DNA of 64,000 bases from Euglena gracilis (GCA_039621445.1 CP154954.1:17948589-18012588); one strand, 5' to 3'. Shown: positions 10,263-45,833, counted from the stretch's first letter. The notes: generated by a model from the sequence alone, not told the origin. A program made the numbers and translations.

Positions 10263-11074
10263 GGGTGGTACTGGGCCACGTTGGCCAAAACGTCGCCCTC
10301 CCCTCGTTCGCCGACAACCTCTGCCTCAACTGCATGACCTCCACTTACTTCGTCGCCCTGTTCACCGCATGTGCGTCGGTGCTCATCCTGTCGCCGCCGG
10401 GCTTTCGCTCCCACAGTGCGCCGTGTCCACCATACATTGTGATATTTTTCTGTCAGAAAGCTGTAGAGTTGATTTTTCTCCCCCCGGTGCTTTTATGCCA
10501 TGCAAAAGATGTGCTGGTGCCCATCAAACTATTGGCATATTTGATTTATCCATCATCAGAGCTGCAGAGCATGGAACAATGGAACATGTTGGCAACCCAA
10601 AAGCGAATTTTTTTCGATGTTAAACCCAGAGTCTGTTCAAGGAGTTCAAAGTATCCTAAGCAGATATTTTTTTTAAGTTTCGTGACCCGGCGGGGGGGGG
10701 GTGGGTCCCTGGCCGAGCCCCCCCTTTCCCAGGAATGGGTACCCCCAGAGGTTGGGTTCTGTTCTATTTTCCCCGCTTGCACCGACAGAATTTTTTGGAC
10801 CCCAAAATTGACCCTCCAAATGTCCAAGCCCCCCTCCCCGGGGGAGCCCAGCGGGTGGGTGGGTGCGTCTGGAACCCCCCGGGCCTTAAAAACCTCTGAT
10901 CCTGAGCATTAATAACCCAAAGTCAAAAAATCGTCAGGAGCATAACTGTGAGATTGTGTTCAATGTAAATTTGCAAGATGAAGATGTTTGACCAATTTTC
11001 AAAAAAAAGTATCAAGCAAGGCTCCTCTTTGTTTCCTTTTGTTCCAGTGTATGTGTGAATGTGTGTGTATGGAA

Positions 11075-11113
<39 letters not shown>

Positions 11114-14100
11114 CGTGCGCGTGCGTGCGTGCGCGTGCGTGCGTGCATTTGTGTGTGATGGGACCATGTCTCCTGCCCATCTGCATGTCTTCCTCTGTCG
11201 TATGGGGAAACTCTTTGACTGGGAATAAGGCCCCTGCCATTCTTCCTCGTCTGCTTGATCTCCCGGACTAACACCCCGGTGCAGCACCACTCCCACTCCT
11301 CTCTTGCGCTCGTGACACTGCACATGCCCCCCACCCTTTTTGTGGATGGCTTTATTGGGTCCTGGCTGGTTGCCTGAGCCCATTTCATTTCAGAAATGTC
11401 TTTGACTCACTGTCTCCCTGGATTTTTTTTGTTGCCGCCAATCCTCCTCCTGAAGCTGTTGCTAACAGCCCCCCCCCCCCCCTGGGACTAGTCGAGCCCC
11501 CTCCGGGGGGGGGGGTACTGCAAACCCTGAAGCAGAAGCCTGGAACAGATAGCAGAACTTCTGAAACTCATTCTCAAGACCACAAAGGTCGGTACCCCCA
11601 ATGCCAGGGGCTCTCGGAAACCTCGGGTCTGAACATCACACTCGGTGCTGGAGGTGGAAAGCCTGGATACAGACAAAAGCAGCTGTGGAAGCAAAGGCTT
11701 CCATTTTTGTTCCTTATTGCCGTTTGAAGACAAAAGCTGTCACTCAGGCTGCATTTATGTGATCTGATGCTGAAAGTCTGTTCACACACGAGGGGAACAA
11801 TGGAAGGTGGTGGGGTGTTGGGAACATGTTGCCTTCGTGATATTTTTTCTGAGTTCTGTTCAACAAGCCTGAAAAAAACCGGCAAAAATCAGAGAACCCT
11901 CAACCAGAGAAACGTCAGCTATCTTGTTTGCAGGTGCATTGCATCAGTGGAATTCGTTTCTTCTTTTTGCCCAGATGACTTTCCACATAAAAGCTTCTTT
12001 AAAACCAAGGTGCAAGGCACCGGCCTCAATGGCCCCGGGGAAATACACAATCATTGGAAGATGCGATGAGATGTAACTGTTGCACTGCCACAAAAGAGTT
12101 GAAACGCGATGCTTCCGTTTGCGGCGCTTCACCGACCGCCGCTCCCCTTCCCCTGATAGGGAATCATAGCATGGTCGCCATTCCAGCACTCGCCCCAACC
12201 GAAGGGACACACACCGCAGTGCCAGTGCCACGGACGCGGTGGTGGGCTTCCTGTCGGCGTGCGCGCTGCTCATCCGGGCCTACACCGCCCCCAGCAGCAA
12301 GGTCAGCCCGGTGTTCCACCCAGGGGTTCTCTTCCCTTTATCGAATACCGAACGAAATTCGTCGAATGGCTCTTTCGTGTTGACCGGGGTTGAGTTTCAC
12401 CCAAATCACGTGGGCTGCTTCCTGGCAGGAGGGATGGTGGCCCCCCTCCAAGTTGGGTGCGACCCCCGTGGTGCAGGTGGTTAATCTGAACACTGCGCCT
12501 CACCATGGCTGGATCATTGCCTGTCCAAACGTTGCTGGGGAACTCTATCTCACTCCTTTCATGTGAGCTTTGGTGCTGGAGTCCCCTGCGCCTTGCAAGT
12601 GGGTCATCGTTCCGTGACCTGCTGATTTTCGCTGGGCCAAAACGTGTAAATGGAGTAAGAAATTGTGCAGGCCAGGATTGCATTCAGGGTTTTTTTTTAG
12701 TTGTGGACCCCCGGGGGGGGGGGGAGGGGGGGTAGGGTGGGTGGGTCCGGCCGGACCCCCTCAGAGGGGTGTGCCTTTTTTGGCTGGTGGGTTCCCGGCG
12801 CTGAAGGGGCCGGAGAAAAAAATTTTGACCGGCGCCGAGGCGCCAAATTTTTTTGGTATCTTCTTTGCCGCGCCTCTTGTCACAGCCAAAATGTACAAGT
12901 GCTTTTGTGGTTCCATGTTGAAGAATTCTGGACAGTTACAATTTTATTTTATTATCCATCATTATCCATCATTGTGAATGTCATTAAATTTCTCCTTTAA
13001 GTTGTCATATGATTTGGTTTTTTGTTTTTCTTCGAAGCACAACATTACAGCGGCATACACAATTAAACACAAATGAGCATTGCTTTGGTCTTTGCGACAA
13101 TTCCACAGTAAAACACCAGCATTTTCTATGACAACAATGATAACAAAACATTGTAACTGCCGTCAATTTTTTTTTCGATGATTGGCGTGTTTGCTTTGCC
13201 GCGTTCACGTTTCGCAGTGTCAAAAATACCCCCCCCCCCAAAAGTGGGTCCATCGGGACCCCCCCCCTGGGGGGCCCCCAAGGGGTGGGTGGGTGGGTGG
13301 GGGGTACCCCCGGTCTTAAAAAGAACCCTGATTGCATTTTTTTGCTTTTTGTTCTGCCTATCAGCATCCATACTCGCGGGAATGTGGATGCCAATGAATC
13401 ACGGCAAAGCATCATTCCAGGGTTCCGGAAGTTCTCTGTTCTGAAGTGCAGAGGGACTAATGTGCAATTTTCACTTATACCCCACCCCGAAGGAGCGAAT
13501 CTTTGTCCCTAGGCCATTGCCTCCAGTGTCTCCATCTGCTACAGCATCCGACTCCATACGCTCTTCAAGGAGGAGGTATCGTCTGCTTGCTGCCTTTTTT
13601 TTAAGTCCTTGTCACTGCTTTGGGTTTTCAAGCGAAGCCTGGACAAGAAAATGTCCACACAGAAGAAGCGCACGCATGGGAAACCACCTGGCTCTTTTTC
13701 AACCATTTAGGAAACGTAGGTATCGAAATGAAGGCAATCCGCCCCTGCAAAGTTATTTGGGCAGTGCCCTAACCCATTGACAGATTGATGGATCGATTCA
13801 CCACATATCCTCCTATAACCCTTTTCCTGTTCCTTGTGAAGCGGGCAAGTCATTTGGACGGAACTTTTTCAGCTTTCCCCCTGCAAAGTTATTTGGGCAT
13901 GCAAAACTTCAGGGCACTGCACATTTTGTTCGGGGGTTAACTTGAGCACCATCACCGAAATCTGTTTGGAAGTTTTTGAGAAAAATGAACCTTTTCTGAA
14001 CCAGCAAATGTTTCAAATTACAATCGATTTGTTTCTCCATTTCCGCCCAAAAGATAAAGCTTCCCATCATAAAGAGGCCCCTCCAGAGAGAGTTGGAAGG

Positions 14101-17100
14101 TAAAGAAAAATTGGCGGAAAGTTGGAAAGGATGAGAATGAGGCAGTGGGTCCTCTGCCATTTCTTTTACCAGTGGGACCCCTCATCGATGATGCCGAGTG
14201 CTTTGGACGACGTTGAGGCCAAAAAGGTTGGTCCACTAATTTTGCGGGGGGAAACGTTGTTTGGGAGGGGGGGCTAGTGAACTACTTAGGTTTAAACTTT
14301 TTGTGGTGGGGTTGGACTCCTTGTTCCTCAATTGGAAAACATTTGTCCCTTGAGTGTCCCTTTTTCATTATCATTTTCCATTTTGGGTTCCTAGACACTT
14401 GCCAAAATTTCCTGTATGTCATGCTTTTTTTTTTGAATAGCTTCCCACTTGATGTATTGGTGTTTATGTTCGGCCCACGGGTCTGTTACAAAAAATACGC
14501 AGTGTTGTATTCAGGCAGTTTTTTTGGGGGGGCACCCCACCACCCCATCACATTAAAGGAGCAGGAACTCGCCTTGTTTCTCTGTTATCCGAGTCTCCGT
14601 CCCGGCGCCTTCCAACCTTTGCGTGCGCCTTTCCAGTACCTGACGTCCAAAGATGCCATCACGTGCCTCCTCGTGGTGTTTGGGTTGCTGCTGGCGATGC
14701 CCAGGCAGTAGCTCCCCCGCCCAAGGATATTTGTTTTAAAGGTTTGGTGACCCGGTGGGGGGGAGGGAGAGGGGTCCAGAGGGGGGGGGTCGCGCTGGCT
14801 TTCCCTCCATTTTCGGTGCGAAGTTTTTGGCTCATGCAAGCCCTGATTAGGCTGTTGATTAACGGTTTGCAGCACCCCCTGGGGGGGGAGGGGGCTGGAC
14901 TGCAGCTAGTCCAATTTTGGCTGGTGGAAATCCCAGAGGACCCCCCCGGGGGGGGGGGTCCAGTAGCAGAGCTGGCAAGTGGAATTTTTTTTTCCACAGA
15001 GACCGGCACGAAGCGCCGGAAATTTTTTTGACTCCAAAACTTATCAAAATGTCCATTTTGGGCCATTTTTGGAAGAAAGTCAGAAAACATTAAAAGCCTC
15101 ATTTCCACCTCCGGCGCACAGCACCAGGGGAATTTCTTTCTCCCAGCTGGGGGGACCCCTGACCCCCCCAGTGGGAGGGAGGTCTAGTTGGTGGCTTTTT
15201 TCCAGTGTCTATCAAAATGGCGTGCCAGTGGGCCCCCCTGGGTCTTTGAGCCAGGTTGGCCACGGCGTTCGGCAAAGACCATGCGTTGGGTTGGACCCGG
15301 TGTGGTGCTTCAGGGTGGCATTGACCCCGCTTCAGCCCCTTGCTCAACTTTGACCCTCCCAGAGCTTGATCACAATCACCTGAACACCCCCCCCCCCCGG
15401 TCGTGGACAAGGAGAGTCCACGGAGTCCAAAGAGTTACGAGACTTTTTTCAGTAAATTCTTCCTGACACCTGAGGGTGACCTGGAGGGGATGCACCCTGA
15501 GGTATAACCAGAGGTTGGCAGGAAGGTTTTTCAAAAAAGAGTCTTGTAACCCTGTCATCACCATACATCTCTCTAAGGTTTTGCGAACCCCCCCCCCCCG
15601 GGGGGGCGACTGCAGCCAGCCCCGATTTGGGCCCAGCCCAGCCGCAGCAGCCCCCTCCCCCGGGGGGGGGTGCTGCTAGCCCTAGCTAGCCAGCCCCTTT
15701 TTGGGGGTCCAGCCCAAATTTTTTTGAAAAACTGTGTTCAAAAGTGGCCAAAAATGGGGTTTGGGGGGTGTTTGGGGCATTTTTGGGGGGGTTTCAGATG
15801 CATCATTTTTTCAAAACTGTGTTCTGCAGGTCATTTTTGGGCTTTTTTCCGATTTCAGTCCAGCTCGCCCCGGTTCGGGTCCACCCCCCCCCGGGGGGGG
15901 GGGCGGGCTAGCCAGCCCAAATTTCTAGCCCTAGCCCAGCAACCCCCCCCCGGGGTCCTTAAAGAGATGTATGGTCATCACCCACCTCACCAATAGGCAC
16001 GCAGTCCCACCCAGATGTTGCAGCCCCGAGGTTTCCGAATTATGATCCAAACGGTATTTACAATTTCCAAATGAATCATGCAGGAATGAGGTGAATTCAT
16101 GTATTCGTTCCCATATGATGATCCGACGGGATTCAAACACAATGTGTTTTCCTGTTCCTGCCTCAACGCCCCTGGGGTCTGCTAGAGTCCAATCACCCCA
16201 GGGATGGATGGGAAGCCCTTCGGTTATGAGGTAGGTGGTAGGGGGTGGTCCTGACCCCCCCCCCCCCCCGCTGGGGGGTAAGGTGGTAGGGGGGGGTCCG
16301 GACCACCCCCCCCTCGCTGTCAAGAGGGGGGGGGGTCGGACCCACCCCCCCCCGAGCTTCCCATCCATCCCTGAATCACCCACAAGGAACCACACTCTCA
16401 GGGAATTTCTCTTCGCGCCAAATAGAGAGATTGAAAAAATGCTCTTTTTTGTTTTCTTTATTATTTGTCTCAAAAACTTTCGGTTGAGGGATGCCTGTGC
16501 CTGGCAATGATCCCGACGTGGAACGATCCACTGTGCGGCATTGACCGCGGGGTGGTATGGCCGCTCATCTGCCTCTTTGGCTGGTTGCCCAAGACCCTGC
16601 TGAACGTCTTGGAGGAGGTGTGTCCAGCCCTGCCTCTTCAGTCATTGCTCTTTCTTGGGTTTCCATATTGCCTTGTTTTAAAAAAGGACATTTGGCAGTT
16701 TTGCCAAATGTACTTTTTTGCCAAAAAATTTTTTTTGCGGCTCAGCTTTTTTTTGACCCCCTCCCCCAGTGACCCCCCCCCCCACGTGACCTGCAATTTC
16801 GAGTTTTGGCGGGTGGAGGAAGTAAAATTCCCAAGAGGACAAAAAATCCCCTTTCTTGAAAAAGGCCATCCCCCCCGTGACCTGTTGCACCCTCTAAAAT
16901 GGCCATAACTCGTACCAGGCATGGGGGGGGCCAGGTCTCCCCCGTCTGGGGGTGGGGCAAGCTTGCCAGCCCAAATTCCCAGCCCCAGCCCAGCAGCCCC
17001 CCCCCCCCACTGGGGTCCTTGAAGAGATGCATGCCCACCGACACACTATTGGCGGAGCAGTTCAGGCAGAGTGGATTCAAAGATAGTCTCAGCGTGCCCA

Positions 17101-20100
17101 CCAAGCACCTGTGAAATGACTGGGTGTGACTGGGTGTGGCTGGGCGTGACTGGGCATGACTGGGCGTGACTGAGCGTCACTGGGCATGATTGGGATTTTG
17201 CCCACATCTGGCTTCTTCTGGCGTCTTTTGGCCATGTTCGGCCTTTTTTGTCCCGTTTTGTCCGCTTCTGGCTATCTTTGTCCATTTGTGGCCACCTATG
17301 TATATTTTTGCGAGTTTTTGAGCATTTTTTGGCCACTTTTGGCCAAGCTTGGCCTTTTCTGGCACTGGGATTTCTGTGTGACGACTGGGTGTGAGTGAGC
17401 GCGACTGAGCGTGACCGGGTCTGGGATTCTGGATGAGTCTTGGTGCTTGCTGCCTGCCTCCTCCCCACCCCATCCCTTTGGCTCCCGCAGTGGCAGTTCG
17501 TGGGGGTCTGCCAGTCGGACGGCTGGCCGCTGCCCCAGCCCCCCGCCAACACGCTCCCCAACATCATCAGCCTCCTCTTCTGGGTCAACCTCTACGCCCT
17601 CTTCTTCCTCGTCGCCTTCTTCTGGACCGACATGCTCCCAGTCCCTCTGGGTGTGACTGGTCCCATGCAAAGTGGTGTCTGCTGGGCATGCTGCCTTTTG
17701 TGTGTCTGTGTCTCTCCCTGTTCGCGCTGCAGCTTGCAAATGCCAGCAAGCGATTCAGTGACGAAAATATAAGCTGGTGATTTTATTTCGAAAAATCCCA
17801 AACAAATCATATTCTGATGCCAGCCAGCTGTCAGAGATATTTCAACAACTGAACTTTGCTTCAACCAGCAAGCTTTGCTTCTACCCCCCCCCCCCAAACA
17901 TGCGTCCACAAGAGTGTCATGGGCCAACAGAATGGGGTTAGCAAAGGGAGGGCTAATTGGCAGTTTTTTGTACATTTTTGTGGTTTCAATTTTTGGACCG
18001 CAGTCGGGCAGGGTTCGAGCCACTTGGGTGGGTCCCCTGGCTTGGGGGGGGGGGGGAAGGGGGTCAGCCAGCCAGTCCAAATTCTCCAGCCTCTGACATC
18101 CCCTCCCCTTCCCCGCCCTGGGGGTCCTAAGCGACGCCCTGGCCCCGATACGCCGCCGGAGGACACATCCCCGGAGTCTCCTCCTGGGCAGGGATGTGTG
18201 GGAAGCCCTTCAGTTTTGAGGTGGGGGCAACCACCCCTCCCCTCCTGGAGGGGGTAAGGGGGGGTCGATGAGCTCTTATCCCTTTATGGGTAAGAGCGAA
18301 GCTTACCCCTGGGGGAAAACCCCCCCGAACCCCCCCCCCTCCCCCACCCCTCGGGGCCACCTCGGGAACCGGCGGATTATCACCATGATCCCGGCCCCGT
18401 TCCCAAAATTTTTTTTTCAGTCGCGAGCGACTGGATTCCTAGTTTCTGAATCACCTGGGTTTGACCCCCAACTCCCCGCCAGGCCCGAGTTATTCACGCG
18501 CGAAGGGGTCCAAACTGGGTAGGATTGGCCCAACCCCTGGATAACCCCCCCCCCTTCGGACTCTGCCATTTCGGCCAAAAAATGTCAAATTTCAAAATAT
18601 CTCCAAAATGAAGCCAAATCAAAGGAAATGTCCGGAGACCTAATTGAAGCCCTTGGAACACTCCATCTACCGGTATTTTGATTTTCCCACAACTATTCGC
18701 GTAGCCCGAGATACGGCCGTTTTTTCGGCCGATTTTGGCCACTTTGTACACTTTTTCCACTGGTGGACTTAGCCGTTTTCGGCCAAAAAAGGCGAAGATT
18801 TTCGAAAAAAAAATTTTCCCCCCAAAACCATGCTTCTTGGCCTCCCGGACCCGGAAAAAGGGTTTTCGAGCCGCAAATGGGCGTTTTTCAACCATCATGG
18901 CCATCATGACCCGTGATGACCAAGATGCCCATGATGACCCATGATGCCAATCATGGGTCATGATGGGCATCATGGGGCATGATGGCCATCATGACCCATG
19001 ATGCGCATCATGACCCATGATGGCCATCATGCCCCATGATGCCCATCATGACCAAAGATGCCCATCATGACCCATGATGCCCATCATTGGTCATGATGGG
19101 CATCATGACCCATGATGCACATCATGACCCATGATGCAATCATGGGTCATGATGCCCATCATGACCAATGATGGGCATCATGACCAATGATGCCCATCAT
19201 GACCCATGATGGCCATCATGACCCATGATGGCCATCATGAGCAATGATGGCCATCATGACCCATGATGCACATCATGACCCATGATGCCCATCATTGGTC
19301 ATGATGGCCATCATCGGTCATGATGGCCATCATCGGTCATGATGGGCATCATGGGTCAAAAAAGTCGAAAAAAAATCGAAATTTTTTTTTTGCCCGAAAC
19401 GATGTTTTTGGGCCTCCCAAACCCAGAAAAACTGTTTTTGGGCCGAAAATGAGCGTTTTTCGACCCGCCAGCGCCCCGTTTGGGGCTGCCAACCCATTGA
19501 CTTTGGGTCATTTTCAGGTAAAAAAAGTCGAAAAAAATCGATTTTTTTTTGCCCAAAACGATGTTTTTTGGCCTCCCGGACCCAGAGAAACTGTTTTTTG
19601 GGCCGAAAAATGAGCGTTATTCGACCTGCCAGCGCCCCGTTTTGGACCGCCAACCCATTGACTTTGGGTCATTTTTGGGTCAAAAAGTCGAAAAAAATCG
19701 AATTTTTTTGCCCGAAACGATGTTTTTTTGGCCTCCCGGACGGACCCAGAGAAACTGTTTTTGGCCGAAAAATGAGCGTTATTCGACCTGCCAGCGCCCC
19801 GTTTTGGGCTGTCAACCCACTCACTTCCGGTCATTTTTGGGTCAAAAAAGTCGAAACAATCGAAAAAAATTTTTTGCTCAAAGCGCTGTTTTTTTGGCTA
19901 TCCAGACCCAGAAAAGGTGTATTTTGAGCCAAAATGAGTGTTTCTTCACCCCCCAGCGCCCTGTTTCGGCACAAAACCTTTGCATTTCAGTCAACAGAGC
20001 TCCATGGAGTGCACCGGTTTATATGGGGGTGTCAATGAAGGGGTGGGTGAGCGCTTATTAAGAGCTCAGCACTATTCAAAACCTGGTCCAGACCCCCCCC

Positions 20101-22448
20101 CCAGATGTCGGGAGGAGGTGTCCGTACCCCCCCCACTCTCTTTGACAGGTTCCGAAAATAGCGAAAAGCTTTCTTCTGGCGCTCTGCACCAAAAATGCTT
20201 AAAAGGGGAGGGCCCGTATTAAGTTTGGTTTATGTGCAATTCTTTGGCTCTGGTTTGTGCCACAGGGCTGGGGTCCAACTTTGCGGAGTTCCTCTCGATG
20301 ATCCGGGAGTCCCTCTACTGCTACGCCTTCTCCCGGCCGCAGTGCCCCCGCCTGTGCCCCCCGTTGTACTTGGTGGGTGCGAGGTCAATGGAAAATGGAA
20401 GGAGCCTCTCCGCACTCTGTCTTTGTGCATTTTGTTCTGTCTTGCATTTCAACGAACGTTGCATACAGGGCACTGTTCAGGAGAATTTGACCCCATCTGC
20501 CGGGGGTCCAGCCAGCCAGCAGCGTTTTTCCAGCCCCGGACCCCCTCTCCATCGAAGAGTTTTGTTTTCTTTTGCAACGGGCGGCTGGACAGTGACGCAT
20601 TTTTTGGGGGGTGCAAGAATGGACAAAAAAAAATGGGCTAAGTGGGTCGGTCGGTTTGGGCTCGCCAGGGCAAATTTGGTTGGGGTAAAAAAAATCCACT
20701 TTTGCACAATTGGCAGTATTTTGGGTATTTTTGCAGTTCCGATTTTTTGAATCTGGGTTGACCGAAGGTCAGGCCTGGTTCCAGGTGGGGGTGGGGGTGG
20801 GGTGGACAGCGTGGTGGTCATCCATCAGCCTTTTTCCAGCCAGCCCAAACTTTCCAGCCTCCCTTCAGAACTATGCCACTCGGAACACCAGAAGGGTGTT
20901 TGTCCTGCATTCGATCGTGTGTGACTGGGCCACAGATGCACCTGACTGTGTGTGACTTCCTTGGGGGGTTTTTGAGAATGGGTGGGTGGGTTGGGGTCGC
21001 TGGACCTGTCCCTCCCAGGGGCCAGGGGTGGGGTATGCCATAGGTCAGCCTTTGGCCCGGCCGAAGGTTGGGTCAGAAAAATAATTTCAAGGGTTTTCGG
21101 GTGGGTGGTTTTTCTCTCTCTCTCTCTCTCTCTCGAAAATCAGAGGGTGGGTGGGTTTGCACCCAGGAAAAAGTGCCCCCGGGGGGCTCACTAAGTGAAT
21201 CTATGAACCGGGCCATCCATGCAACGGGCCATGCATGCCTGGACTGGGTCACACATCTAAACCGGGTCACGCGTGACCGCAGTGCCCAACCGTTGTCCCC
21301 CCCGGAACGGGGGCACGCCCCCACCTCGCGTTCTGGGCGACCTTCCACGTCCTCACCGTGCTGTGGACGTCTGTCTGCTGCGCCCTGGTGCAGGAGCAGG
21401 TGTTTGCCAAGCTGTCCATGGCGGCGGCCCTCGTGTACGTGCCCCTCAGCGTGCTGGCCTGGATGGGCTACTACCTCCGCCTCTCCAGCTGGCAGGCCTG
21501 CCCCACCCTGTCCCCCCATCGTGCACGCTCTCATTTCGGTGTGAGCATCAGCAGACCAGGGGGTGAATTGGCAATGACCCAAGGTGGAATGGAAAGAAAT
21601 TGGCAGAACAAAATCCCCCAAGTATTTTTCTACCGTTTTTGGCCCATATGATTTTCGAATTTTTTTCCTAGAAATTACCCATATTTTCTATTGCAAAAAA
21701 ATTAGCGAAACAAAACTTTTGCCGAGACTGCCAAATTTTCCATCTGCAGATTTTTTTCATCCAGTTTTCTTTAGCCCCATTTCCCCCGCCCTGTGTTGTC
21801 AATGCCTGATGGGCAGTTGTGCCATTTGGGGTGGTTGCATGAAAGGTGGGAGCCACGTGATGGGTTGCTTTCAGTGAGGGGCTCGTCATCAGGGGGCCAG
21901 CCAGTGTATATTTTTTTGCGAAGTGTGAATGGCGACGGCACTTGTAACAGAGATGGGAGGATGCGAACTCCCCGCGAGCCCTTCCAAAGAATGATTGGGT
22001 GAAATTCCGACCCAACGTGCAGTGTTTCATTTCCCGCCCACCCAGAAGATCAGTGGGCATCCCCTCATGGTTTAAAGCACAAATGTGGTATGTGCGTTGA
22101 ACAAGGATGCTGGGACATTTTTTTTTGCTTCCCCCCCCATTTAAGTGCACAGGGTGTGCTCAGTTTTGGACCGTTGTTTCGGGCCCTCAAGGGTGCGCGC
22201 TTTCTTTGTGGCACTATGGTGTGCCACAAAGTTGTGCACTTTTTTGGATTTCACTTCGGTGGGGTGACTGCGCTCAATTTTGGGGTTAGACCTCATATAG
22301 CACAACCAGAACAATCGCGATGTGGTCATTTTTGCGTCGATGCGCCATATGCTTTTGCTTCTGCTCAGGCAGTGGTGCCCACGTTGATGGTGTACATGTG
22401 CGCCCTCGTCCCCATCTTGACCGCCGTGGCAATGCATGGCCTGCTCAG
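10263..22448 (+). CDS. CRT-like (chloroquine-resistance-transporter homolog, DMT superfamily) multi-pass membrane transporter, spliced; both termini uncertain
   Basis: Exons ~10263-10370, ~12227-12317, 13511-13575, 14637-14698, 16509-16617, 17491-17650, 20266-20349, 21323-21495 and 22369-22448. Hydrophobic peptides GHVGQNVALPSFAD, KVSPVFQAIAS, LLFWVNLYALFFLVAFFWTDMLP and VYVPLSVLAW resemble CRT-homolog motifs as I recall them (no search run). Possible extra exons lie near 9270-9370, 11-12 kb and 22970-23030. Confidence 0.65.
10661..10898. mobile_element. hAT-like MITE with 8-bp TSD
   Basis: CAGA..TTTTAAG / CTTAAAAA..TCTG ends; flanks ATCCTAAG / ATCCTGAG (7/8). Confidence 0.7.
12318..13510 (+). 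other. nonconventional intron
   Basis: C|ACCCAGGGGTTCTCTTC...GGAGCGAATCTTTGTCCCT|A. Long terminal stem with G-U pairs; yields KVSPVFQAIAS. Confidence 0.7.
12685..13330. mobile_element. hAT-like MITE with 8-bp TSD
   Basis: CAGGGTTTTTTTT / AAAAAGAACCCTG TIR; perfect TSD ATTGCATT. Confidence 0.85.
15562..15973. mobile_element. hAT-like MITE with 8-bp TSD
   Basis: CATACATCTCT..AAGG / CCTT..AGAGATGTATG TIR; perfect TSD GTCATCAC; internal GCTAGCCAGCCC motifs. Confidence 0.85.
16199..16373. mobile_element. hAT-like MITE with 8-bp TSD
   Basis: 18-bp TIR CAGGGATGGATGGGAAGC; perfect TSD AATCACCC; a related end lies at ~18189. Confidence 0.9.
18893..19352. repeat. degenerate CATGATGCC/CATGACC minisatellite
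   Basis: Dozens of CATGA-based units are directly visible. Confidence 0.9.
19353..19980. repeat. ~160-bp tandem repeat, about 4 copies
   Basis: GGTCAAAAAAGTCGAAAAAAATCG recurs at ~19353, ~19517, ~19678 and ~19839. Confidence 0.85.
20350..21322 (+). other. nonconventional intron (junction ambiguous)
   Basis: C|GCCTGTGCCCCCCGTT...AACGGGGGCACGCCCCC|A stem; yields RPQCPHLAFW. An alternative AG acceptor lies at 21282. Confidence 0.6.
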
Positions 22449-23525
22449 GTGGGTTTTCGGCTTTCTGGACCAAATGGCTCTCATGTCCGCAAATCCTTTC
22501 TTCTATTCTTCTGTTCTGCTATTTTTTTAACCAATTTTTATCTTGTGTGTGCATGATATTTCAATGGTTTTCTCGTGCAAATAGTTTAAGCTCTTTTCAG
22601 CTTCTAAGAAGTGTCAAAAACTTAAAGTTACGCGACAACTAACCATTTTCTGTCTGCGAATATGGATAATTCTGCAGCCGGCAGGCACACAATGAGAGAC
22701 AAATGATGGGCCCAAATCCTCAACAGGTAATTTTTTCCCAAACGTCATACTAGAGCCCTCCCCCCCCCCCCCGGACTGGCTTACTGCCCCCCCTGTGTCC
22801 GACTCGGGCCTCTGCCAGCTTTGCTGTCGGGCAAACCACCATTGGCTGCCTGGACCGGGCTATGACCGATGACCGCTACCTCCACACCTGACCCTCTCAC
22901 CTCTGGCCTCCTCACCTCCTCACCTTTCACCCCGCATGATTGTAGGCCCTTGCCTTCTTTGCCTCGCAGGCGTTTTCCACCCTGCTCATTCATAGTGCAC
23001 ATTCGGCGGTGTGATCGGTGCACCCCTTGACATTTTCCAGAAGGGCTCATTGTCGAAGGTGCGAAGCAGGTAATCGTACGTAGAAGCTGTGAGAAGCCTG
23101 AGAGGCCTGGAACTTCAGGATGCTTTTGTCAGCATTTTGCTTCGTTTGACCCGTATGGGTGTGGGGTGACAGTGAGGGGGATGTGCGGGGCATGTTTGGT
23201 GTGACAGTGGTGGGGGGAGTGTGGGGGGGGGGTTTGGAAATTCCTGGAAAACCGACGTGTGAGAAGCGTCATTCACACCAATATTAACCATCAGCATCAT
23301 GCACGACATCAGCAAAACTGGACTTGAGAACGGTCCAAAAAAAAACCTGGCATACAAAGGACATTTGTGCCTGACCTTGCACAGGGAAGGATGATGCTGT
23401 TTTTGTTCTGGGGGGTTGGCTGGGGCCAGGCGAAGCCGAAGGCCGAGTAAGTCAAAAATGGCGTCAAAAATTTGCCCACCAAAGTGATTTGTGTGCCCAA
23501 AAATTGGCATTCATTGAGGTCGAAG

Positions 23526-23770
23526 CAGGCTTTTTTTTTTAAGCTCAGAAGACCCCCCCCCCCCCCAGGGGGAGGGGGGTGGGTGGGTGGGTCCAGGGCT
23601 GGACCCCCCAAGGGGGGGGATCCTGGGCCGTAGGCCTGGGTCTGGGTTTCGGCGCGAAGTGGCGCAATTTTTTTTTTTGGGAAATGGCCTCAGAGCACCC
23701 GATTTTTGGGGGGTCCCGCACCGGGCTTGGTGGGTGGGGGGACCCCCGGGGTCTTAAAAAGAAAAGCCTG
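23526..23770. mobile_element. hAT-like MITE with 8-bp TSD
   Basis: CAGGCTTTT..TTAAG / CTTAAAAAGAAAAGCCTG; perfect TSD GGTCGAAG. Confidence 0.9.
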
Positions 23771-24954
23771 GGTCGAAGTGGGGGGGGGTGTTGGGGGGTG
23801 TTGGAGGGGATGTGGAGGTGTGTGGGGTCTGTGGGGTCCTGTGGGGGCTCCACTTTAAGCCACGCAGCCTGCATTTCTATTTCACATTTTTTTTCGCATT
23901 TCATATTTTGATGTGCTTTTTGCATTGCCCTCCTCTGGTTAATGAAAAGCCAACACCGACACCATCCCACGACACTCTGGACCCGCCCAAGTTTGGGACC
24001 CAACCTTTGGGCTGCAGATTTGGCTCCATACTGTCATTATGCCTAAAGCACCCCCCACCCCGGTCCACAACAAACGGCATGCCCCACATCTACACATACG
24101 AGTTGGGGTGTGCCGACATGAATCCTCGGCATACATAAATATAATATGCATACACAGGCTCACCCTCGCTGCTCTGGTATTTTCCTGCACTTAAAAGGTG
24201 ACTGCAGATGCAGTAAATCCGCATATTGTCGGCTGAGGTTGGAGGCCCCTCTGGGGGTCGATTTCTGAACGCCCAGGCAGATGCTGAACAACCACACACA
24301 CACGCGCGCGTGCGCGCACACACCACTTACACACAGCATGCGAGTACACACACATCATTCCAGTTTACCTTCACCTGCTTTTGATTCCAGAAAAAAATAT
24401 ACAAAGACAACTCCCTGCCTCCACCTCCCCTCTGGAGTCATTTCGGTCGTCTCCTGGTGCACAGGAGAACAGATGGTTCGAGGTTCGAATGTTCCCATGT
24501 CATCATTTTAGTTCACGGAGGCAAGATCGGCAGAATCCAGGCTCCAACCAAGCTGCCATGCCAAACTGCACCACCTTTTAGGAGCTCCCCAATCAGCCAG
24601 CGAACGCACCCTACAGTCGCCTCCTGTCAACCGGCGATGCATCCGCTGTGTACGTTCGATGTGTGTCACCGTTACACATTGAACGCTCAGCAGCCCCTGT
24701 GGCATTGCTCAACACCCCTGCTTTCCCTCTGAACGCACTTCCCATTCCCACTTCCATCCCGACTGACGATCGTCAGCACAGCGTTGCGAGCCCAATGTCC
24801 ATAATATTTTTTGCTTGATTTGATTTTTGATGATAATGATTGGACGGCATGAACGCTCACAGCCACATTCTGACTTCCTGTGCATCGTTCTGGCAAACTC
24901 ATCATATCTGTAGCAACAAGGAGGTGCGTTGGATTAATCAGAAAATTAACTGTT

Positions 24955-27874: not shown

Positions 27875-27911
<37 letters not shown>

Positions 27912-29702: not shown

Positions 29703-29745
<43 letters not shown>

Positions 29746-38700: not shown

Positions 38701-41700
38701 TCAGGGAAGAGCTGCCAGACAATGAGCGGTCAGTGATCCTCCGCAGCTGTTTCCCCCCGGCCCTCGACACCGAGGACCAGCGCGCGGCGGTGGCCGCACT
38801 GCACATTGAGCGAGCGATGCGTGTCCTGCCCCACCTCCAGGACACGGGCGGCTTCTTCCTGGCCGTCCTGCAGAAGGTGCTGGGGCGGGGACTCGCACTG
38901 TGAGCGAGCAGCTTTTGCACACAATTGGAACAAAGGCGAGGATGAATTAAAAATTAAATGTTAATCATAGCATAACGTGTATTGATATAATGCAACATAA
39001 ATTTTCGAATATCAGTATGATTTTTTTTTGCGATTGCATTTTATTTCTGTTCCAATATGTGTTCAAAGAACATGTGGCGCTTGAGTCGTCTCCATTGACT
39101 TAACATGCAGCTTAGCTGTTCAGGGCTCACTCAAACCCAGTAAAACAAGGTTTTTTTCCCTTTCTAAGGGCAAGCGCGGGGATGGTCGGTCCCAACTGGT
39201 CTTTCACCATTGCCCCGAACATCTTTTTAGCACAGGGTCACCACCCCCTGATTCCATTGCCCCTGATGTTAGAGCCAAGCTCGTCACACTTTTATTTTTG
39301 CAGCCATTCACCCAAGGCAACAAGGTCAGGTTAGACCGATCACCCCCTCCCCAGGTGGGTCTCATTGGGTTGCTTCTGCCAAACTTTGATCCCTGTTTCA
39401 AAGCACAATTTGACACTGCAGCAGGCGCTCCATTGAACCTCTCGTTTCTCTGTCGCAGATGGGTTCGCAACCGCCCAAAGGAAGTTGAACCCCAATTTCG
39501 ATTTTTTTTTTTGATGAAGTTCCTTGTCACGTGTTGGCATTTCCTCCATTGGCGTGTGTTGTTGTGGCTATGGTTTGCGGGCCAACCCGAATTGGTTGAC
39601 CTTCGTCGGCTGACCCATCCCCCGCTTCGCAGACTGCGCACTGGAACCCAGAGCTGCAGGGGGCAGGCGTGTCTCGCATTGCCTTCTTGGTGGATCCATC
39701 CATCCATCCATCCATCCATCATTCTTCCATCCGTTCATCACCCATCCCTCCTTCCATCCAACCAACCATCCATCCATCCATCTGCAGAAATGTGTGTGTG
39801 TGTGGGTATGGCACCATATGTATACATACACACATATATGCATGCATATATGCGTATGGACACGGACATTGACCTGCACATGGACATATACATACAGATA
39901 TACGCACGCGTGCGTTTCTGTATGTCAATGTTTATGGCAATGTTATACAAGTGGGACCCATTTGCAGAACAGGGTGGGGGGGCTCTTCTATGACCCATTT
40001 TAAATCTCGTGACGGAAGCAGGGTTAGTTGGATTTCAGCCAAACTTTGTCCTGAATTCCTGCTGCGGTTTGGCTGGCTTTCGGCCTGACCCAAGCCCAGT
40101 TTAGGCAAAAAATTCTACCCTACCCGCTGACTCCTAAACATGACCCCATTCCTATCTAACCCTGACCACTGCTGTGCGGGGGTCACCGCAGAGGTTTGGG
40201 CGAGGTTACTTTCTCCCTCTCCCTGCCTCCCAAGAGGGTATTACGAAAAATGAAATCCTGGCCCTGCAGTGACAACTGGTCGGCTGAAGCCCCCATGAGG
40301 CCATTCCTGTGGGACTCCTCCCATTTGTATAACATGCGCGCACGTGTGCGTCTGTGAGTATACACCTGGGATGTACTTCTTTACATGAAATACAACATAA
40401 AAAACAACATAATGGCATACACGTACTGTAATCTGGTGAAGGAACAGGCTGACATTTAAGTTCAAATTACATTTGAGTAAATATAAATTTTCTTTAAGGC
40501 GGTACCGATCCCACGCCCGGTGGGGTGCCTGCCTGGGCAGGCACCCCAAGGCACCCAAATCCGACCCCCCCCCCCCAGGGGTCAGGGCATTGGCCTAGGC
40601 ATTTTTGGCGCCGAAGGCGCTGGAAGCCCATGAAAAGCCCATTTTGGACACTTTTGGCCCATGACCCCGCAGGCACCCAGGGGGGGGGAGTGCCCTGCCC
40701 ACGCACTCCAGAACACCACGCCCCCCGGGTTGGTCAATTTCGGCCTGCATGGGAGCATTGAGGCACCCCCCCCCCCGGCAGGGTTGGCAACCAACCCCAA
40801 CCCCACACTGGGTACTTTGGCATAACCCCCCCCCCCCAAATAAGACCTCGGATCCATTTCATGGGTCGGTTGCTGGAAAGCCCAAGGGGAGGCCTTATTC
40901 ATGGGGGGGGGTCAATTAAATGGATTTTTGCTGGAAAATTTTTGACTTTGGAAAATTATTGCGGGATGCCCCTTTGAGCACTGATTCTCACGTCACTTTA
41001 TGTTCATGGACATAGACATGGCACAAAAATCACTTGCTTCTTTTCTCAATGAGGTCAGAGGCCAAAGCTGTGCTGCTGATGCATCTTTCCATGTGCATTT
41101 CCATATCCGTATCCTATGCGTATTCAAAAACATATGCACACACATACACATACATGCATAGGCATATGCATATGCATATACATATGCATATGCATGTGCA
41201 TACACATATGCACATATATTATGTGCACACATGTGCATGCAGATATTCATATCTACATATTCATATGCATATGCACATTTATAAAGTATACATACAAATA
41301 TGCATATGCATATGCGTATGCATATGATATACACATACATATTCATATCCATACACAATTACGTACATACGTAACATATACAAAGACATTTCCATTTGCA
41401 TATACATCTTTATGTACACACACATGTTCATATGGATATGCATATATGCACATCCATATACACGTATACGTAGCCAATCACCATCACCATTTTGGTGCTA
41501 AAAATTGTCGTATTCCAACGTGCTACCACCCGCCAGGTGCATATTGTTTTGCCTGCCTAACTGCAGGGGAGGGAAGGAGGTCGGCCACAACCGGCCAAAG
41601 TCGGGAGCCGGCCGCTGTAAAGAGCGACGCCACGGCCACCACTGCAGCCGCAGGAACGGTGGACAGTGAGCGGACAGTGGCAGCGGGCAGTGAGTCCACA

Positions 41701-44700
41701 GCCCGGAAAGGTACGGAGGCCACAGAAGAAAGCACACCATTGAAATGGCCCAGGAGTGAAACGATGTTGTGTCCAGTACTGCTGTCTTGTGCATATTGTA
41801 ATATGAAACTGAAAGAGAGAGAGAGGCGCAAAGACTTGCAAAAACACGTTTTGATTTCATATTCTTTCAGCTCCACAACTGACAAATGTCAAGCCCACAA
41901 TTTTTTTTGAAATTTTGAGTGAAACTTGCACATTATCGGTTTTCATTGCCTTCAGGCAAGGAAAGCAAGAAGCTGACTGACAATTTTATTCCCATCAGTG
42001 ACGCCATCATTGAGGTGTGCATATTTACACGCGCGCACGCATGCACACACATACACACATACAGGAACTTCATCGAAGAAAAATCATTTTTTTGAATACC
42101 AGGCTTCACGCAAGTGATAACCCCCGGATAATGGACATACAAATCATTCTGTTCACTTATTCTTCTTCCTCTTCCTGTTCTTAAACCCCTCCAGAAAGAG
42201 AATAGAGAATGAAGTTTGAAGTGAGGTCGCTACCAGATGGTCCTCCCTCCCACCACCAACCATCATACTATTGTAACTCGACTGTGCAGAGGTGGAGGTC
42301 GTATCCTCTGTTAGCTTTGAAGAGGGCACATGTTGATTTTCTCGCAATCATTACAGGGGGGGAAAATTGATATCCGCAATTTTTCCGCAATTTCCGCAAT
42401 TTTCCGCAATTTCCGCAATTTTCCGCAATTTTCCGCAATTTTTCCGCAATTTCCGCAATTTTTCCGCAATTTTTCACCATTTTTTTGAAGAATTTTTTCC
42501 CCACCACCGAAGATGGAAGATGCAATGAGTTCAAGCCATTCTTCAAATGGATCAACAGGTGTGCTATTGTGTTTTGTTGTCCCCCCCCCAGTTTACCAAT
42601 TTTTCTCACAGGTGCACCACTGGTCACAGGATTGGGTGCGTCCCACCTGTGCAAAGAACATCAAGCGTGTTGATTTGTGCTCGCCTGCATCGACGTGGGT
42701 GTTGCGGTGTTCTGAACCTCACAATTGAAAATTTCTAAGTCCCCCCAAGCAGAAATGTGTATACCCGATATCAATTTTTCCGCAATTTTTCCGCAATTTT
42801 CGCAATTTTTCCGCAATTTTTCCGCAATTTTTCCGAAGGCCTCCGATATCAATCCCCCCCCCCTGAATGATTCTCAAGGGCTTGCACTCGGCTGGAAAGG
42901 AGCTCACCTCTGTGGCCTGTGGAGAAGCACCCTGTCACCCCACCCCTCGCTCAGCAACTGCGGACTCAAATCCAGCTCACCGACTCCTTCCCGATGGCGT
43001 GCGTCCACCGACGGGAGCGGAACGTCGGGGCATACAAGAAGAAGCTGTTCTGGCTGTCCGAGACAGCGAGCAGGTGCCCGGTGGGGGGGGGCAGGTTCTT
43101 GTGAAGGGTGTCATGTTGGGGCAGTCTTCTGCTTAAGGATTGGGGGGAGGGCTGCTATCAAAACCCAGCTAATTAAACATCCTTCGACCTCCTGTAATAT
43201 GCCAAAGATGCTGATTTTTGACATTTTTATGGTTTCTGGGACTCAAATTCGGAAAAAAAATGAATCTGGTAAAAATCTCATTTTTTTCATTTCCACAATT
43301 GTGCGAAGCATGGAGGATGTTTTCCTCCAGTTGGGGGGACCCAGCAGGGGGGGGAATATGCACTGTGCAGTTTTTGCAGTTTTTTGAAGTTTTTACATTT
43401 TGGTTTTTTTTGCAGTTTTTTGCAGTTTTTGCAGTTTTTTTGCAGTTTTTTTTTGCAGTTTTTTTTGCAGTTTTTTTTTCCCTCAAAAATGCACATGTGC
43501 ATTTTTTTTTGCAGTTTTCAGGTTTTGGTTGGCCCCATTTTGGTTGAAACTACAAGGGAAGTTTGCTGACCACGTCGCTTTTTTTTTCTCAACATTCCTG
43601 AACTTCAGCTGAGGTGGAGCGGTCCTTCAGTCTGGCTGGCTGCATTGACACAAAATTGCGCCATGCCTTGCCTGATGAGACACGCAAATTATCCACCATG
43701 CTCATGTTCAATGGCGACATTGAGGGCCGATTCCGTTAAGGACCCTTTGCTGTTTGTTTCTTTCATGTTTCCAGCTGTGCCGTGCCCTTTCTGATTCGGA
43801 ACGTCCTTTATGGCATTAGATAGGCCCTTTTGTGCAAATGGAACATCAATGGTCTCATCCTTAGTAATTAGCCTGACTCGTTGCACGATGGCTTCCTCAA
43901 ATGGGTTTTTTCTTGTGACGTGCAGTTTTTTTTGCAGTTTTTTGCAGTTTTTTTTGCAGTTTTTTTTTGCAGTTTTTTGCAGTGCAGTTTTTGACCTGCC
44001 CGTGTGCAGTTTTTGCCCCCCCCCCTGGGGACCCAGAACCCCGGGAGGGAGGGGGTCTTTCTACCTCGTGGCTTTTACGTAACCTCCCACACCCCGGGGC
44101 CTCAAACAAAGGCCTTGATGGGGGGCACCCCCCCCCCCCTGCTTCCTCACGCTGCTGGCAGTGCCGACCATCTGCATCCTCAAGTGGTTGGAGCTACACA
44201 GAAGCAGTTTTTTTTGTTGCACTGGAGCTAGGTTTTGTGGTGCTGGTCGACCCAGGGCTGGGGTTTGCTGCCGTTCCTGTGCCCTTCCAGGGTGCTGCGC
44301 TGCATGAACCGGCGGGGCAAGTTCGAGGTCGTCAATGCTGGGCTGCGAGTCTTCGAGGAGCTCACCATCAAAGGCAAAGCGGTGTGGCTGCTTTCATGGT
44401 TCAGAGGGGTCAGTTTGGGTTTTTCGGATTGGGGCATTTTTACCCCATCCTCGCCAGCCAGGCACTGCCAATCAGGGTGCCGCCATCCCAGTCAGCCTCC
44501 TCTCTCCAGCACTGGACCCCCCCATCCACAAGTTTTGTTTGTTTTCCAGCAGCCCAAAGGGCGGCTGGACAGCATCGGATTTTTTTTTGCTTTTTTGCCA
44601 ATGCTGGGTAAAAATCGGTTTGAAGAGCGCCGGGACGGCAAACTTTGGGTCGAAAATGAATGAATATTGCGTGATTGGCAGTTTTCTGGGCATTTTTTTT

Positions 44701-45833
44701 GCAGTTTCGATTCTTCGGTTCGACCCTGGGTCAGGCCCAGGTCCAGCCGGGGAACCCCCATGGGGTGCCCCAGTGCCCCAGGTGGGGGGTTTTCAAGCCA
44801 GCCCAACCAGGCTTCTGCTTAAGGGATTGCAGTACCCCCGGGGGAGGGGCTGGACTGCAGCTAGTCCAAATTTGGCTAGTGGGATTTCTAGCAGACCCCC
44901 CCTGGGGGGGGTGCTCTGCTAGCAGGGCTAGCAAGTGGAAATTTTTTTGGGGACCCCCAAAAATGGCCTAAAATGCCCATTTTTGGCCATTTTTGGGAAT
45001 TTTTGGAACAAAATCAGCCAAAAACCTATTAAAAACCTCATTTCCACCTCGGTGCGCAGCGCCGGAGGAAATTTTTTTTTTTCCAGTTCGGGGGACCCCC
45101 GGACCCCCCCCCCCCCCCCGGGGGGGGGGGGGGGGGGCTAACTAGTCCATTTTTTCCAGTGTCTAGGTGTCTAGCCGATTGGCTAGCCAGTACCCCCCCC
45201 CCCCCGCCCCGGGTCCTTAAGCAGAAGCCTGAGCCCAACCTTTTTCCAACCCCAGAACCGGGCCTCCCTCCCCCCGGTGGTCGCCAAGCGGCCCGGCCTA
45301 CCAATGGTTTCCGTCCGAACCTTCAGGAACGTTGAACTGAGGGAACGTTGAACGTTTGCTGAAGGAGTGTTGCAACCATTGCACCCGCCCACCATTCCGT
45401 TACCTCGGCATGCTCATTGGTAGGCCCCGTTGTGTTTGTCGGGTGGTTCCTCCCGGGAAGGCTCGTACCGTCACCAGCCCCCCCGCCCCCCCCCCCCCCG
45501 GCTGTTTGAGTCAATTTGCCCCCACATATATAACACACACTTTTTTTGACTCCCCTGGAGGCCACCCCTCCCCTGGCCATGCCCTCCTGCCACTGCCTCT
45601 CGACTGGTGCTCGGACTGTGCCGCGCCCGCCCTCCCCCGGCCCAGGACCACTGGCGGCTGGCGCACGAGGGGCTGTCGGTGGTCCGCCCGCACCTGCCGG
45701 CGTACCGGACGTTGCCCGTGGCCCGCGGGGACGCGGTCGCCCTCATCCGCAGCAAGGAGGGCAAGCTGCCGGTGTGAAATTTGCTTTCTTTGTGTGCGGT
45801 ACATGGGCACTTTTTTGTTTCCACGGGCTGTTA

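Follow-up and report, generated by a model that had tools for sequence, protein, structure and literature searches.

Two expressed genes, both on the + strand of a 64-kb Euglena gracilis nuclear window (the entire stretch of DNA analysed here), carry numerous small transposons inside their introns. The same genes contain introns that lack the sequences recognized in conventional splicing, which raises the question of whether the one kind of element might have given rise to the other. A MITE origin of euglenid nonconventional introns has been a proposal since 2014, in general terms only. A sequence-only reading of the window made the proposal specific by linking the positions at which these introns are cut to the 8-bp TSDs of hAT-like MITEs.

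Intron junctions were set by placing two transcript-derived proteins on the window, and the resulting junctions agree with the RNA contig pieces. A total of 38 introns were mapped in the two genes, including 25 conventional introns and 13 that have no possible GT/GC-AG placement and are therefore classified as nonconventional. The splicing code for the latter type, N3-CDG...CH'G-N5-6|R, has been established by experiment: a 1-nt alteration of the 5′ spacer abolishes splicing, whereas synthetic 50-bp introns built according to the code are spliced in E. gracilis (Nomura 2025, PMC12501133). In addition, the consensus reported for euglenid nonconventional introns is CAG(G)/(C)CTG, with a Y|R context at both junctions (Milanowski 2016, PMC4770533).

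The nonconventional introns in the window, all on the + strand, largely conform to this geometry. The arrangement N3-CAG...CTG-N5 is present in gene 1 at 4694-5682 (5-bp stem), 14699-16508 and 22443-22800, the last being followed by an exon that begins at 22801 in the RNA contig. It is also present in gene 2 at 32242-33441, where the termini form a perfect 10-bp repeat (CAGCGCTGAC), and at 33931-34355 and 47313-47978. Other introns retain the N3/N5 geometry with different triplets, including those of gene 1 at 10396-11238 (GGG/CCC, 7-bp stem; the RNA contig exon piece at 10262-10392 is compatible with its sliding set), 11308-12237 (CGT/ACG) and 20350-21322 (TGT/ACG, 9-bp stem), and those of gene 2 at 31571-32120 (CGA/TCG, 3 bp only) and 46229-47221 (GCG/CGC, 7-bp stem). 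The gene 1 intron at 12318-13510 has the form N3-CAG...TTG-N5 and a 9-bp stem that includes G-U pairs. The exception to the rule among the 13 is the gene 2 intron at 34460-35222, in which the spacers add up to 7 (N3/N4 or N2/N5) and the stem is 13 bp long.

Overall, a stem of at least 3 bp starts at +4/−6 in 12 of the 13 nonconventional introns, which bears out the earlier statement that these introns are cut at N3 and N5, but the literal triplets of N3-C[AGT]G...C[ACT]G-N5 are found in only six and other complementary triplets in the remaining seven. In a placement-free scan that took in 24 of the 25 conventional introns, the best-ranked total spacer was 8 in 6/13 nonconventional introns versus 0/24 conventional ones. 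A purine directly follows every nonconventional intron (13/13), and the Y|R junction context is present in 10/13. Ten of the 13 are slidable, compared to a published value of 69.1% for E. agilis nonconventional introns and approximately 44% that we estimate for random sequence.

At least eight non-autonomous DNA transposons, belonging to several families, reside in the introns of the two genes. In gene 1, the nonconventional intron at 10396-11238 contains a 238-bp MITE (10661-10898) with CAG...CTG ends and flanks ATCCTAAG / ATCCTGAG, and the intron at 12318-13510 contains a 646-bp MITE (12685-13330) with a CAGGGTT... TIR and a perfect 8-bp TSD (ATTGCATT). Two more are located within the intron at 14699-16508: a 412-bp MITE (15562-15973) with a CATACATCTCT... 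TIR and a perfect 8-bp TSD (GTCATCAC), and a 175-bp MITE (16199-16373) with a perfect 18-bp TIR (CAGGGATGGATGGGAAGC) and a perfect 8-bp TSD (AATCACCC). Another 3′ end of the 15562-15973 family is found at 16939-17033. A 245-bp MITE (23526-23770) with a CAGGCTTTT... TIR and a perfect 8-bp TSD (GGTCGAAG) lies 3′ of the gene 1 stop codon at 22888, inside a probable 3′-UTR intron (~23013-24088) deduced from RNA contig pieces and one contig end.

In gene 2, the GT-AG intron at 42015-42954 contains a 512-bp MITE (42354-42865) with the TIR CAGGGGGGG..ATTGATATC, subterminal repeats TCCGCAATTT and flanks AATCATTA / AATGATTC. The GT-AG intron at 44382-45645 contains a 424-bp MITE (44808-45231) with a perfect 17-bp TIR (CAGGCTTCTGCTTAAGG) and a perfect 8-bp TSD (AGCCCAAC); relatives of this element are present at 14849-15169 and 59935-60254, and its TIR recurs at 11511-11542. 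An eighth element, beyond the seven listed previously, is an internally deleted copy at 43345-44027 within the intron at 43074-44290. It carries a 10-bp TIR (CAGGGGGGGG) and subterminal repeats TGCAGTTTTT, and its flanking 8-bp repeat can be read as GGACCCAG or as GGGACCCA, according to the cut chosen within a G run, with 8/8 identity either way.

The elements measure 175-684 bp (n = 8) and have contiguous TIRs of 4-18 bp, or longer if gaps are permitted. All eight begin with CA and seven with CAG, and CAGG ends are present in six. Among the seven elements listed earlier, whose ends had been given as CA(G/T)...(C/A)TG, six have CAG...CTG and 15562-15973 has CAT...ATG, and the inverted repeats are genuine. 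Apart from the perfect TIRs of 16199-16373 and 44808-45231, those of the listed elements pair over 9-11 bp and then continue with gaps. The flanks of the eight are identical at 8/8 positions in six cases, 7/8 in one and 6/8 in one, and the chance of a single 8/8 flank, given the TIR, is approximately 1.5e-5. The five TSDs described as perfect were all 8/8 on recheck. Two others had been called near-perfect, which is apt for 10661-10898 (7/8) but generous for 42354-42865 (only 6/8). A blind scan for TIR and flank pairs recovered the members with strict repeats, but its output was otherwise overwhelmed by tandem and palindromic repeats, and the scan therefore yields no clean genome-style null.

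Consistent with their designation as MITEs, these sequences are small and non-coding, have TIRs and TSDs, and are accompanied by more copies or fragments within the window. Four bins with listed MITEs have summed word depths in a DNA run that are ~100-3,000 times those of unique neighbours, a ratio that is not a copy number. For example, the bin of 12685-13330 reaches 79,507 versus ~200-350 in unique neighbour bins, likewise as word depth and not as copy number.

The superfamily of these elements is indicated by the eighth copy. It contains a 45-codon ORF (43602-43739, + strand) that appears to be left over from a hAT transposase and corresponds to its C-terminal dimerisation region. The remnant alone has zero Pfam matches, but at E ≤ 1e-3 it has 31 relatives, and in 27 of these the matched segment lies at the C-terminus or close to it. 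When ten of the relatives were compared with PF05699, two scored above the cut-off, three scored below it and five had no match. Moreover, a profile made from 16 relatives matches four Hermes transposase sequences with E values of 3.6e-7 to 1e-6. Because one deleted copy, with ends like those of the others, retains this C-terminal portion, we tentatively assign the elements to the hAT superfamily, in keeping with the earlier assignment. The 64-kb window contains this C-terminal remnant but no autonomous hAT copy and no full-length transposase.

In the target consensus of Ac-type elements, position 2 is T and position 7 is A. For Buster elements the consensus is nnnTAnnn, and hAT elements generally are defined by 8-bp TSDs and TIRs of 5-27 bp, with one hAT MITE having CAG(G/A)GG ends (PMC3517528). 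The element set has both the 8-bp TSDs and the short TIRs, and among its TSDs, which represent only eight sites, T2 occurs in 3/8, A7 in 5/8 and TA at positions 4-5 in 0/8. This partial agreement with the Ac-type consensus, the CAT...ATG ends of 15562-15973, and a hAT protein link that covers one family only, could be taken to mean that some families belong to another superfamily with 8-bp TSDs, such as Merlin or P-like elements. Indeed, two Merlin families with 8-bp TSDs are known in E. gracilis (PMC8101967). However, the Merlin families described in that source all have TIRs starting with GG and are associated with a DDE_Tnp_IS1595 transposase, whereas each of the eight elements in the window opens with CA, one carries a hAT-like remnant, and the profile of remnant relatives matches Hermes. 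Merlin was rejected because of the TIR starts. We consider a wrong hAT label for some families improbable, and the geometric argument would be intact even so.

This argument can be stated simply. A hAT MITE inserted into an exon would bring CAG...CTG ends, a paired stem, and an 8-bp duplicate on either side, and the MITE with its TSD is predicted to be an exact substrate of the published nonconventional code. Cuts at N3 and N5 would then take out the element together with the eight bases of the duplication, leaving the exon as it was before the insertion. The spacer sum would be fixed at 8 because the total undoes the TSD. Given the published N3/N5 code, the arithmetic of 3 + 5 = 8, by which the element and one TSD copy are removed, is exact. 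The TSD had also been offered as the explanation for the asymmetric +4/−6 register. It can explain the sum of 8, but the claim was overstated because any a + b = 8 restores the exon; how the 8 divides into 3 and 5 does not follow from the MITE-insertion model.

The elements themselves are mostly compatible with the code. Modelled RNA folds of MITEs with both TSD copies place the onset of the stem exactly at CAG/CTG. For 16199-16373, the predicted terminal stem begins precisely at these triplets, with the 8-nt flanks unpaired (z −5.3). If the TSDs are taken as spacers, seven of the eight elements fit CDG at +4..+6 and CH'G at −8..−6, and 15562-15973 (CAT/ATG) falls outside the published code. 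A purine at TSD position 6, which would be the first exon base, is present in 4/8 in the present orientation, a feature set by the target site and not by the element.

None of the eight elements in the window coincides with an intron. Rather, all are nested within larger introns, four of them of the GT-AG type, and the notion of ready-made introns was not borne out at this locus. Furthermore, when 70 nt from each nonconventional intron terminus were compared with the rest of the 64-kb window, 0/26 gave a match, poly-G/C runs aside, and hence no nonconventional intron here matches a MITE. Introners are recognized by copies that serve as introns of unrelated genes, and no such copies were found within the 64-kb window.

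The predicted excess of identity in the 8-nt register is likewise not significant, with 40/104 identical positions compared to 128/429 in flanks (Fisher one-sided p = 0.058), and p is 0.23 once the single best intron is removed. Identity is highest at −2..0, as it is in conventional introns, and therefore a junction consensus could account for it. Individual introns range from 0/8 at 33931-34355, for which only one placement is possible, through 5/8 at 14699-16508 (GCGATGCC / GCAATGAT), to 7/8 at 20350-21322 (CCCCCGCC / CCCCCACC), where the context is C-rich and includes a C run.

These observations favour a coincidence, in which ordinary hAT MITEs accumulate in introns, CAG ends and 8-bp TSDs are generic hAT features, and the nonconventional splicing enzyme sets the N3/N5 spacers on structural grounds that have nothing to do with transposons. 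The other complementary triplets in seven nonconventional introns and the scarcity of the Y|R junction context among MITE TSDs (3/8) point in the same direction. In addition, we estimate that a chance value of 8 is not very unlikely, given that transposon TSDs span ~2-10 bp. Nevertheless, we regard a coincidence as rather unlikely. It leaves unaccounted for the surplus of slidable introns and, from the features reported by Milanowski 2016 (PMC4770533), the eight-nucleotide repeats bordering an intron of recent gain, a CAG(G)/(C)CTG consensus that equals the MITE ends, and the same Y|R at both junctions. The last of these is expected from two copies of one duplicated target.

The recently gained intron is a strain-specific nonconventional intron in E. 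agilis gapC that is bordered by eight-nucleotide direct repeats, which match the TSD length and support an origin by MITE insertion. The authors of that study interpreted the repeats as a result of double-strand-break repair, by analogy with intron gains in Daphnia (PMC4770533). According to their explanation, nonconventional introns are made by break repair and the junction repeats are repair footprints, not TSDs. The window offers one case in its favour, as the direct repeat at 14699-16508 is longer than 8 nt (CTGGCGATG versus CTGGCAATG). However, the repair of breaks is not expected to yield repeats of a constant 8 nt, inverted-repeat ends starting with CAG, or spacers that add up to 8. Genuine transposons with just these properties are numerous at the locus. 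We judge break repair to be very improbable, slightly more so than a wrong superfamily label.

Comparison with known systems places the window elements near hAT MITEs such as Mar of Drosophila willistoni and Ds-type derivatives, with which they share 8-bp TSDs, short CAG(G) TIRs, a non-coding character and subterminal repeats. The element at 43345-44027 keeps a transposase C-terminus, as Ds-type deletion derivatives do. The window elements differ in residing in a euglenid and in having no autonomous partner in the window, and our literature search found no paper describing hAT elements in euglenids. With euglenid nonconventional introns they share the CAG(G)...(C)CTG ends and the terminal stem, and a MITE plus its TSD would also reproduce the spacer sum of 8 and, where the target site supplies it, the purine that follows. 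In contrast, the window MITEs are not introns, and each nonconventional intron here occurs once in the window, most of them with no recognisable duplication. Introners, known in Micromonas, Aureococcus and dinoflagellates, are likewise TIR/TSD transposons whose ends and TSD provide splice sites for exact removal, but they are removed by the spliceosome and have TSDs of 3-5 nt that make GT/AG sites (PMC11282704). The removal proposed for the window MITEs would be non-spliceosomal and guided by structure, with the TSD supplying only the spacers.

Taken together, the observations made in the sequence-only reading on the MITEs and introns are confirmed, and its MITE-to-intron interpretation is partly supported, although the window itself offers weak direct evidence for it. 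We conclude, at about an even chance, that nonconventional introns are most likely descendants of exonic hAT-type MITE insertions and that the spacer sum of 8 reflects the TSD. The proposed link to the TSD refines the idea of a MITE origin in a way that is well founded, open to test and, as far as we can see, unpublished. More tentatively, and at somewhat less than even confidence, we propose that euglenid nonconventional introns as a class are exonic hAT-MITE insertions, that their splicing machinery acts as an RNA-level undo of hAT integration with a 3 + 5 offset that removes the element and one TSD, and that hAT MITEs are the living introners of a spliceosome-independent system. Much less likely is that the cutting factor descended from the transposon's own end-recognition protein.

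Most introns of at least one Euglena species are nonconventional, as illustrated by E. agilis with 71.8% (Nomura 2025, PMC12501133). Tying the spacers of 3 and 5 to the 8-bp TSD of one named superfamily turns a general proposal into a quantitative and falsifiable one. The model predicts register-specific 8-nt identity, MITE families with intron members, and precise splicing of a natural MITE with its TSD in the existing EgGSL2 knock-in assay. If the model is true, the eight-nucleotide repeats of the gapC intron would be re-read as a TSD instead of a product of break repair, the host would have evolved a dedicated RNA-level tolerance for one kind of transposon, and euglenids would possess an introner system outside the spliceosome.

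The seven MITEs that a sequence-only reading had listed for this Euglena gracilis DNA were all found by direct check at their coordinates, namely 10661-10898, 12685-13330, 15562-15973, 16199-16373, 23526-23770, 42354-42865 and 44808-45231. All five of the perfect 8-bp flanking duplications that had been claimed are present. Near-perfect flanks had been ascribed to two further elements, which holds for 10661-10898 (7/8 positions identical) and is generous for 42354-42865 (only 6/8). The ends, described as CA(G/T)...(C/A)TG, are CAG...CTG in six of the seven elements and CAT...ATG in 15562-15973, and the longest perfect terminal repeats reach 18 bp in the MITE at 16199 and 17 bp in that at 44808. 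Three MITE families have additional copies or fragments at other positions of the window. Summed word depth in the DNA run, which is not a copy number, is ~21,700-742,000 in four bins holding listed MITEs versus ~200-350 in unique neighbours. The listed elements are real, repeated MITEs. Blind scans for an inverted repeat with a flanking duplication gave output swamped by tandem and palindromic repeats.

An eighth element is located at 43345-44027 (683 bp). Its terminal repeat is 10 bp long (CAGGGGGGGG), and it also carries subterminal repeats (TGCAGTTTTT) and an 8-bp flanking repeat that holds with either reading of a G run. Inside it is a 45-codon open frame (43602-43739) that alone yielded no match to Pfam. 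A representative library contains 31 relatives of this frame at E<=1e-3, and the match lies at or near the C-terminus in 27 of these. When ten relatives were scanned with Pfam, two were above the cut-off for PF05699, the hAT C-terminal dimerisation region, three were under it and five had no match. In addition, a profile built from 16 relatives matched four Hermes transposase sequences (E 3.6e-7 to 1e-6). A metagenome scan for relatives of the remnant returned one contig of 1.2 kb. The element is a hAT deletion derivative of the Ds-like type. What defines hAT elements is a duplication of 8 bp together with terminal repeats 5-27 bp long, and a hAT MITE of Drosophila has the ends CAG(G/A)GG (PMC3517528). 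Merlin elements of E. gracilis also have 8-bp duplications, yet every one begins with GG (PMC8101967). For the family of the eighth element the hAT label has good support, and for the remaining MITE families it is based on structure alone.

Searches with exon-sized open frames identified two proteins derived from transcripts, eukprot EG_transcript_7539 (P0001, 480 aa, without a Pfam family) and EG_transcript_4336 (P0002, 737 aa, with RsmB-F methyltransferase and NSUN2 pre-PUA domains). This identifies the window as E. gracilis nuclear DNA. By exact-match mapping of P0001 and P0002, gene 1 spans 4031-22888 and gene 2 spans 26612-48300, each on the + strand. Sequences were placed on the window from two contig runs presumed to be RNA, as well as from a raw RNA run and a DNA run. 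Splice joints were rebuilt from the protein mapping together with RNA contig pieces, which in two runs are consistent with four exons of gene 1 and two of gene 2. GC3 and periodicity screens served only as rough exon guides, and a Pfam scan of ten long stop-to-stop open frames of the window gave no match. In total, 38 junction pairs were solved under the requirement that the spliced sequence encode the known protein. Outside all intron counts are the first 18 codons of gene 1, which have no match within the window, and the introns of a third, phospholipase D-like gene, for which only a 73% paralogue was found. The open frame of this third gene (59176-59634) carries a phospholipase D HKD-type motif, is 73% identical to its best protein match, EG_transcript_9790, and lacks an exact database transcript; this copy may be paralogous or silent. 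Small amino-acid differences from the database transcripts occur at 26629-26640, 29444-29446 and 31517-31528 (for example, DAAR versus DAAL in gene 2), and several single bases differ from the DNA and RNA runs, all of which point to strain or allele variation.

Twenty-five of the 38 introns have a GT/GC-AG placement, and the 13 without one are referred to here as nonconventional. The claim that such introns are cut 3 nt before CAG and 5 nt after CTG is borne out: a stem of at least 3 bp from +4 to -6 is possible in 12 of the 13 (median ~5 bp), and the summed spacer flanking the longest maximal terminal stem, a placement-independent statistic, peaks at 8 in 6 of the 13 nonconventional introns versus 0 of 24 conventional introns scanned. 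The literal pattern N3-C[AGT]G...C[ACT]G-N5, in which a 3-nt 5' spacer and a 5-nt 3' spacer surround the terminal stem, occurs in six of the 13. A purine directly follows the intron in all 13, Y|R is found at both junctions in ten, and ten are slidable. One further intron, 14699-16508, has the same stem with an additional outer pair. The nonconventional intron 34460-35222 combines a 13-bp terminal stem with spacers that add up to 7 (N3/N4 or N2/N5), which makes it a naturally occurring equivalent of the 3' minus-1 variant that was only partly spliced in a published assay. This geometry matches published accounts, which locate CA/TG at +4,+5/-7,-6 (PMC3935182) and report CAG(G)/(C)CTG in 33 of 55 sequences (PMC4770533). 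A splicing code defined by knock-in, N3-CDG...CH'G-N5-6|R, tolerates no length change in the 5' spacer and +1 in the 3' spacer, and synthetic 50-bp introns following this code are spliced in E. gracilis (PMC12501133).

A MITE whose 8-bp duplicates act as spacers would take its N3 from the end of the left copy and its N5 from the start of the right copy, with CAG, a long stem and CTG in between, such that excision would remove the element plus 8 nt. The proposed 3+5=8 geometry is exact when the duplicates are counted as spacers. In RNA folds of duplication, element and duplication, the terminal stem begins precisely at CAG/CTG and the flanks are unpaired. The triplet rule is satisfied by seven of the eight elements, and the purine rule, which reflects a property of the target site, by four of the eight in their present orientation. 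According to PMC4770533, just one nonconventional intron has been captured as a recent gain specific to a strain. Direct repeats of eight nucleotides mark its junctions and exceed in length those of the other introns studied, and the authors invoke double-strand-break repair to explain them. The same source reports a Y|R context common to both junctions of nonconventional introns, as expected if each falls between position 5 and position 6 of one or the other copy of a single duplicated target. The eight-nucleotide repeats and the shared Y|R fit a MITE-duplication origin unusually well.

Evidence within the window does not demonstrate a link between these MITEs and the origin of its introns. 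None of the eight elements is itself an intron in the 64-kb window; every one is nested within a larger intron. The hosts are nonconventional introns for the MITEs at 10661, 12685, 15562 and 16199, GT-AG introns for those at 42354, 43345 and 44808 (a nonconventional placement is possible as well for the intron around 43345), and an inferred 3'-UTR intron for that at 23526. Moreover, none of the 26 termini of nonconventional introns (70 nt each) matched the rest of the window beyond poly-G/C runs, and therefore no terminus matches a MITE. The 8 nt before +4 were also compared with the 8 nt after -6, the register in which a remnant of the 8-bp target duplication is predicted. Across the 13 introns, identity is 40/104 versus 128/429 in flanking columns, not a significant excess (Fisher one-sided p=0.058), and p becomes 0.23 without intron 20350-21322, whose 7/8 identity lies within a C run. 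What excess exists is located at -2..0, where conventional introns peak too, and junction consensus could therefore account for it. The duplication had also been put forward to explain the asymmetric +4/-6 register. It fixes the sum of the spacers and leaves the 3/5 split free, and the asymmetry is therefore not explained by duplication alone. A sample of thirteen introns from 64 kb is far too small to decide the claim of decayed duplications. An A reported at position 2 of the downstream exon (PMC4770533) was considered as a relic of the hAT target site and dropped, because only 2 of 12 window introns have A there and a small number of intron positions supplied all 55 published sequences.

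Several other introns and repeats were recorded. Intron 20 of gene 2 leaves the encoded protein identical whether a GT-AG placement (43074-44290) or an N3-CAG...CTG-N5 placement (43068-44284) is chosen, and is a possible 'hybrid' intron, a type discussed in print. The GC-AG intron 39667-41566 has a 6/8 direct repeat across its junctions (39662-39669, 41562-41569) and, close to either end, CAGGC/GCCTG with spacers summing to 8. It was rejected as a duplication candidate, being GC-AG with the repeat outside the predicted register, and is read as conventional because an N3/N5 placement would alter the protein. A further repeat family recognised by eye at 20570-20790 and 44540-44750 (GGGCGGCTGGACAG ... 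TTGGCAGT ... GCAGTT.CGATT) is hosted by a nonconventional intron of gene 1 and a GT-AG intron of gene 2. Within a GT-AG intron, 18892-19966 comprises a 19-bp tandem array (~23 copies) followed by a 162-bp array (3.8 copies), with the top summed depth of the stretch in the DNA run, up to ~2 million. The single match from Rfam and tRNA scans of the window, MIR474 (19073-19180, minus strand), falls within a tandem array and is probably a spurious, chance hairpin. Finally, a large inverted repeat at 63017-63933 has arms at 63017-63357 and 63593-63933 (341 nt, 85% complementary), with outer parts that consist of (CACCCA)n at one side and (TGTGGG)n at the opposite side.

Both a MITE origin and junction repeats termed 'TSD-like' have already been published (PMC3935182; PMC12501133, discussion; review PMC11282704). 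The word hAT does not occur in these three texts, nor do 'TSD' or 'target site duplication' in PMC12501133. A search of the main texts of openly accessible papers found none linking nonconventional introns to hAT elements or an 8-bp duplication. The MITE observation is thus confirmed. The interpretation that nonconventional introns are former MITEs is not demonstrated by the window data, and is strengthened by the hAT assignment and the published literature. The general idea of a MITE origin and the 'TSD-like' repeats are known, and the tie to hAT and its 8-bp duplication is apparently new, an apparently unpublished, sharp and readily testable refinement of the known hypothesis.
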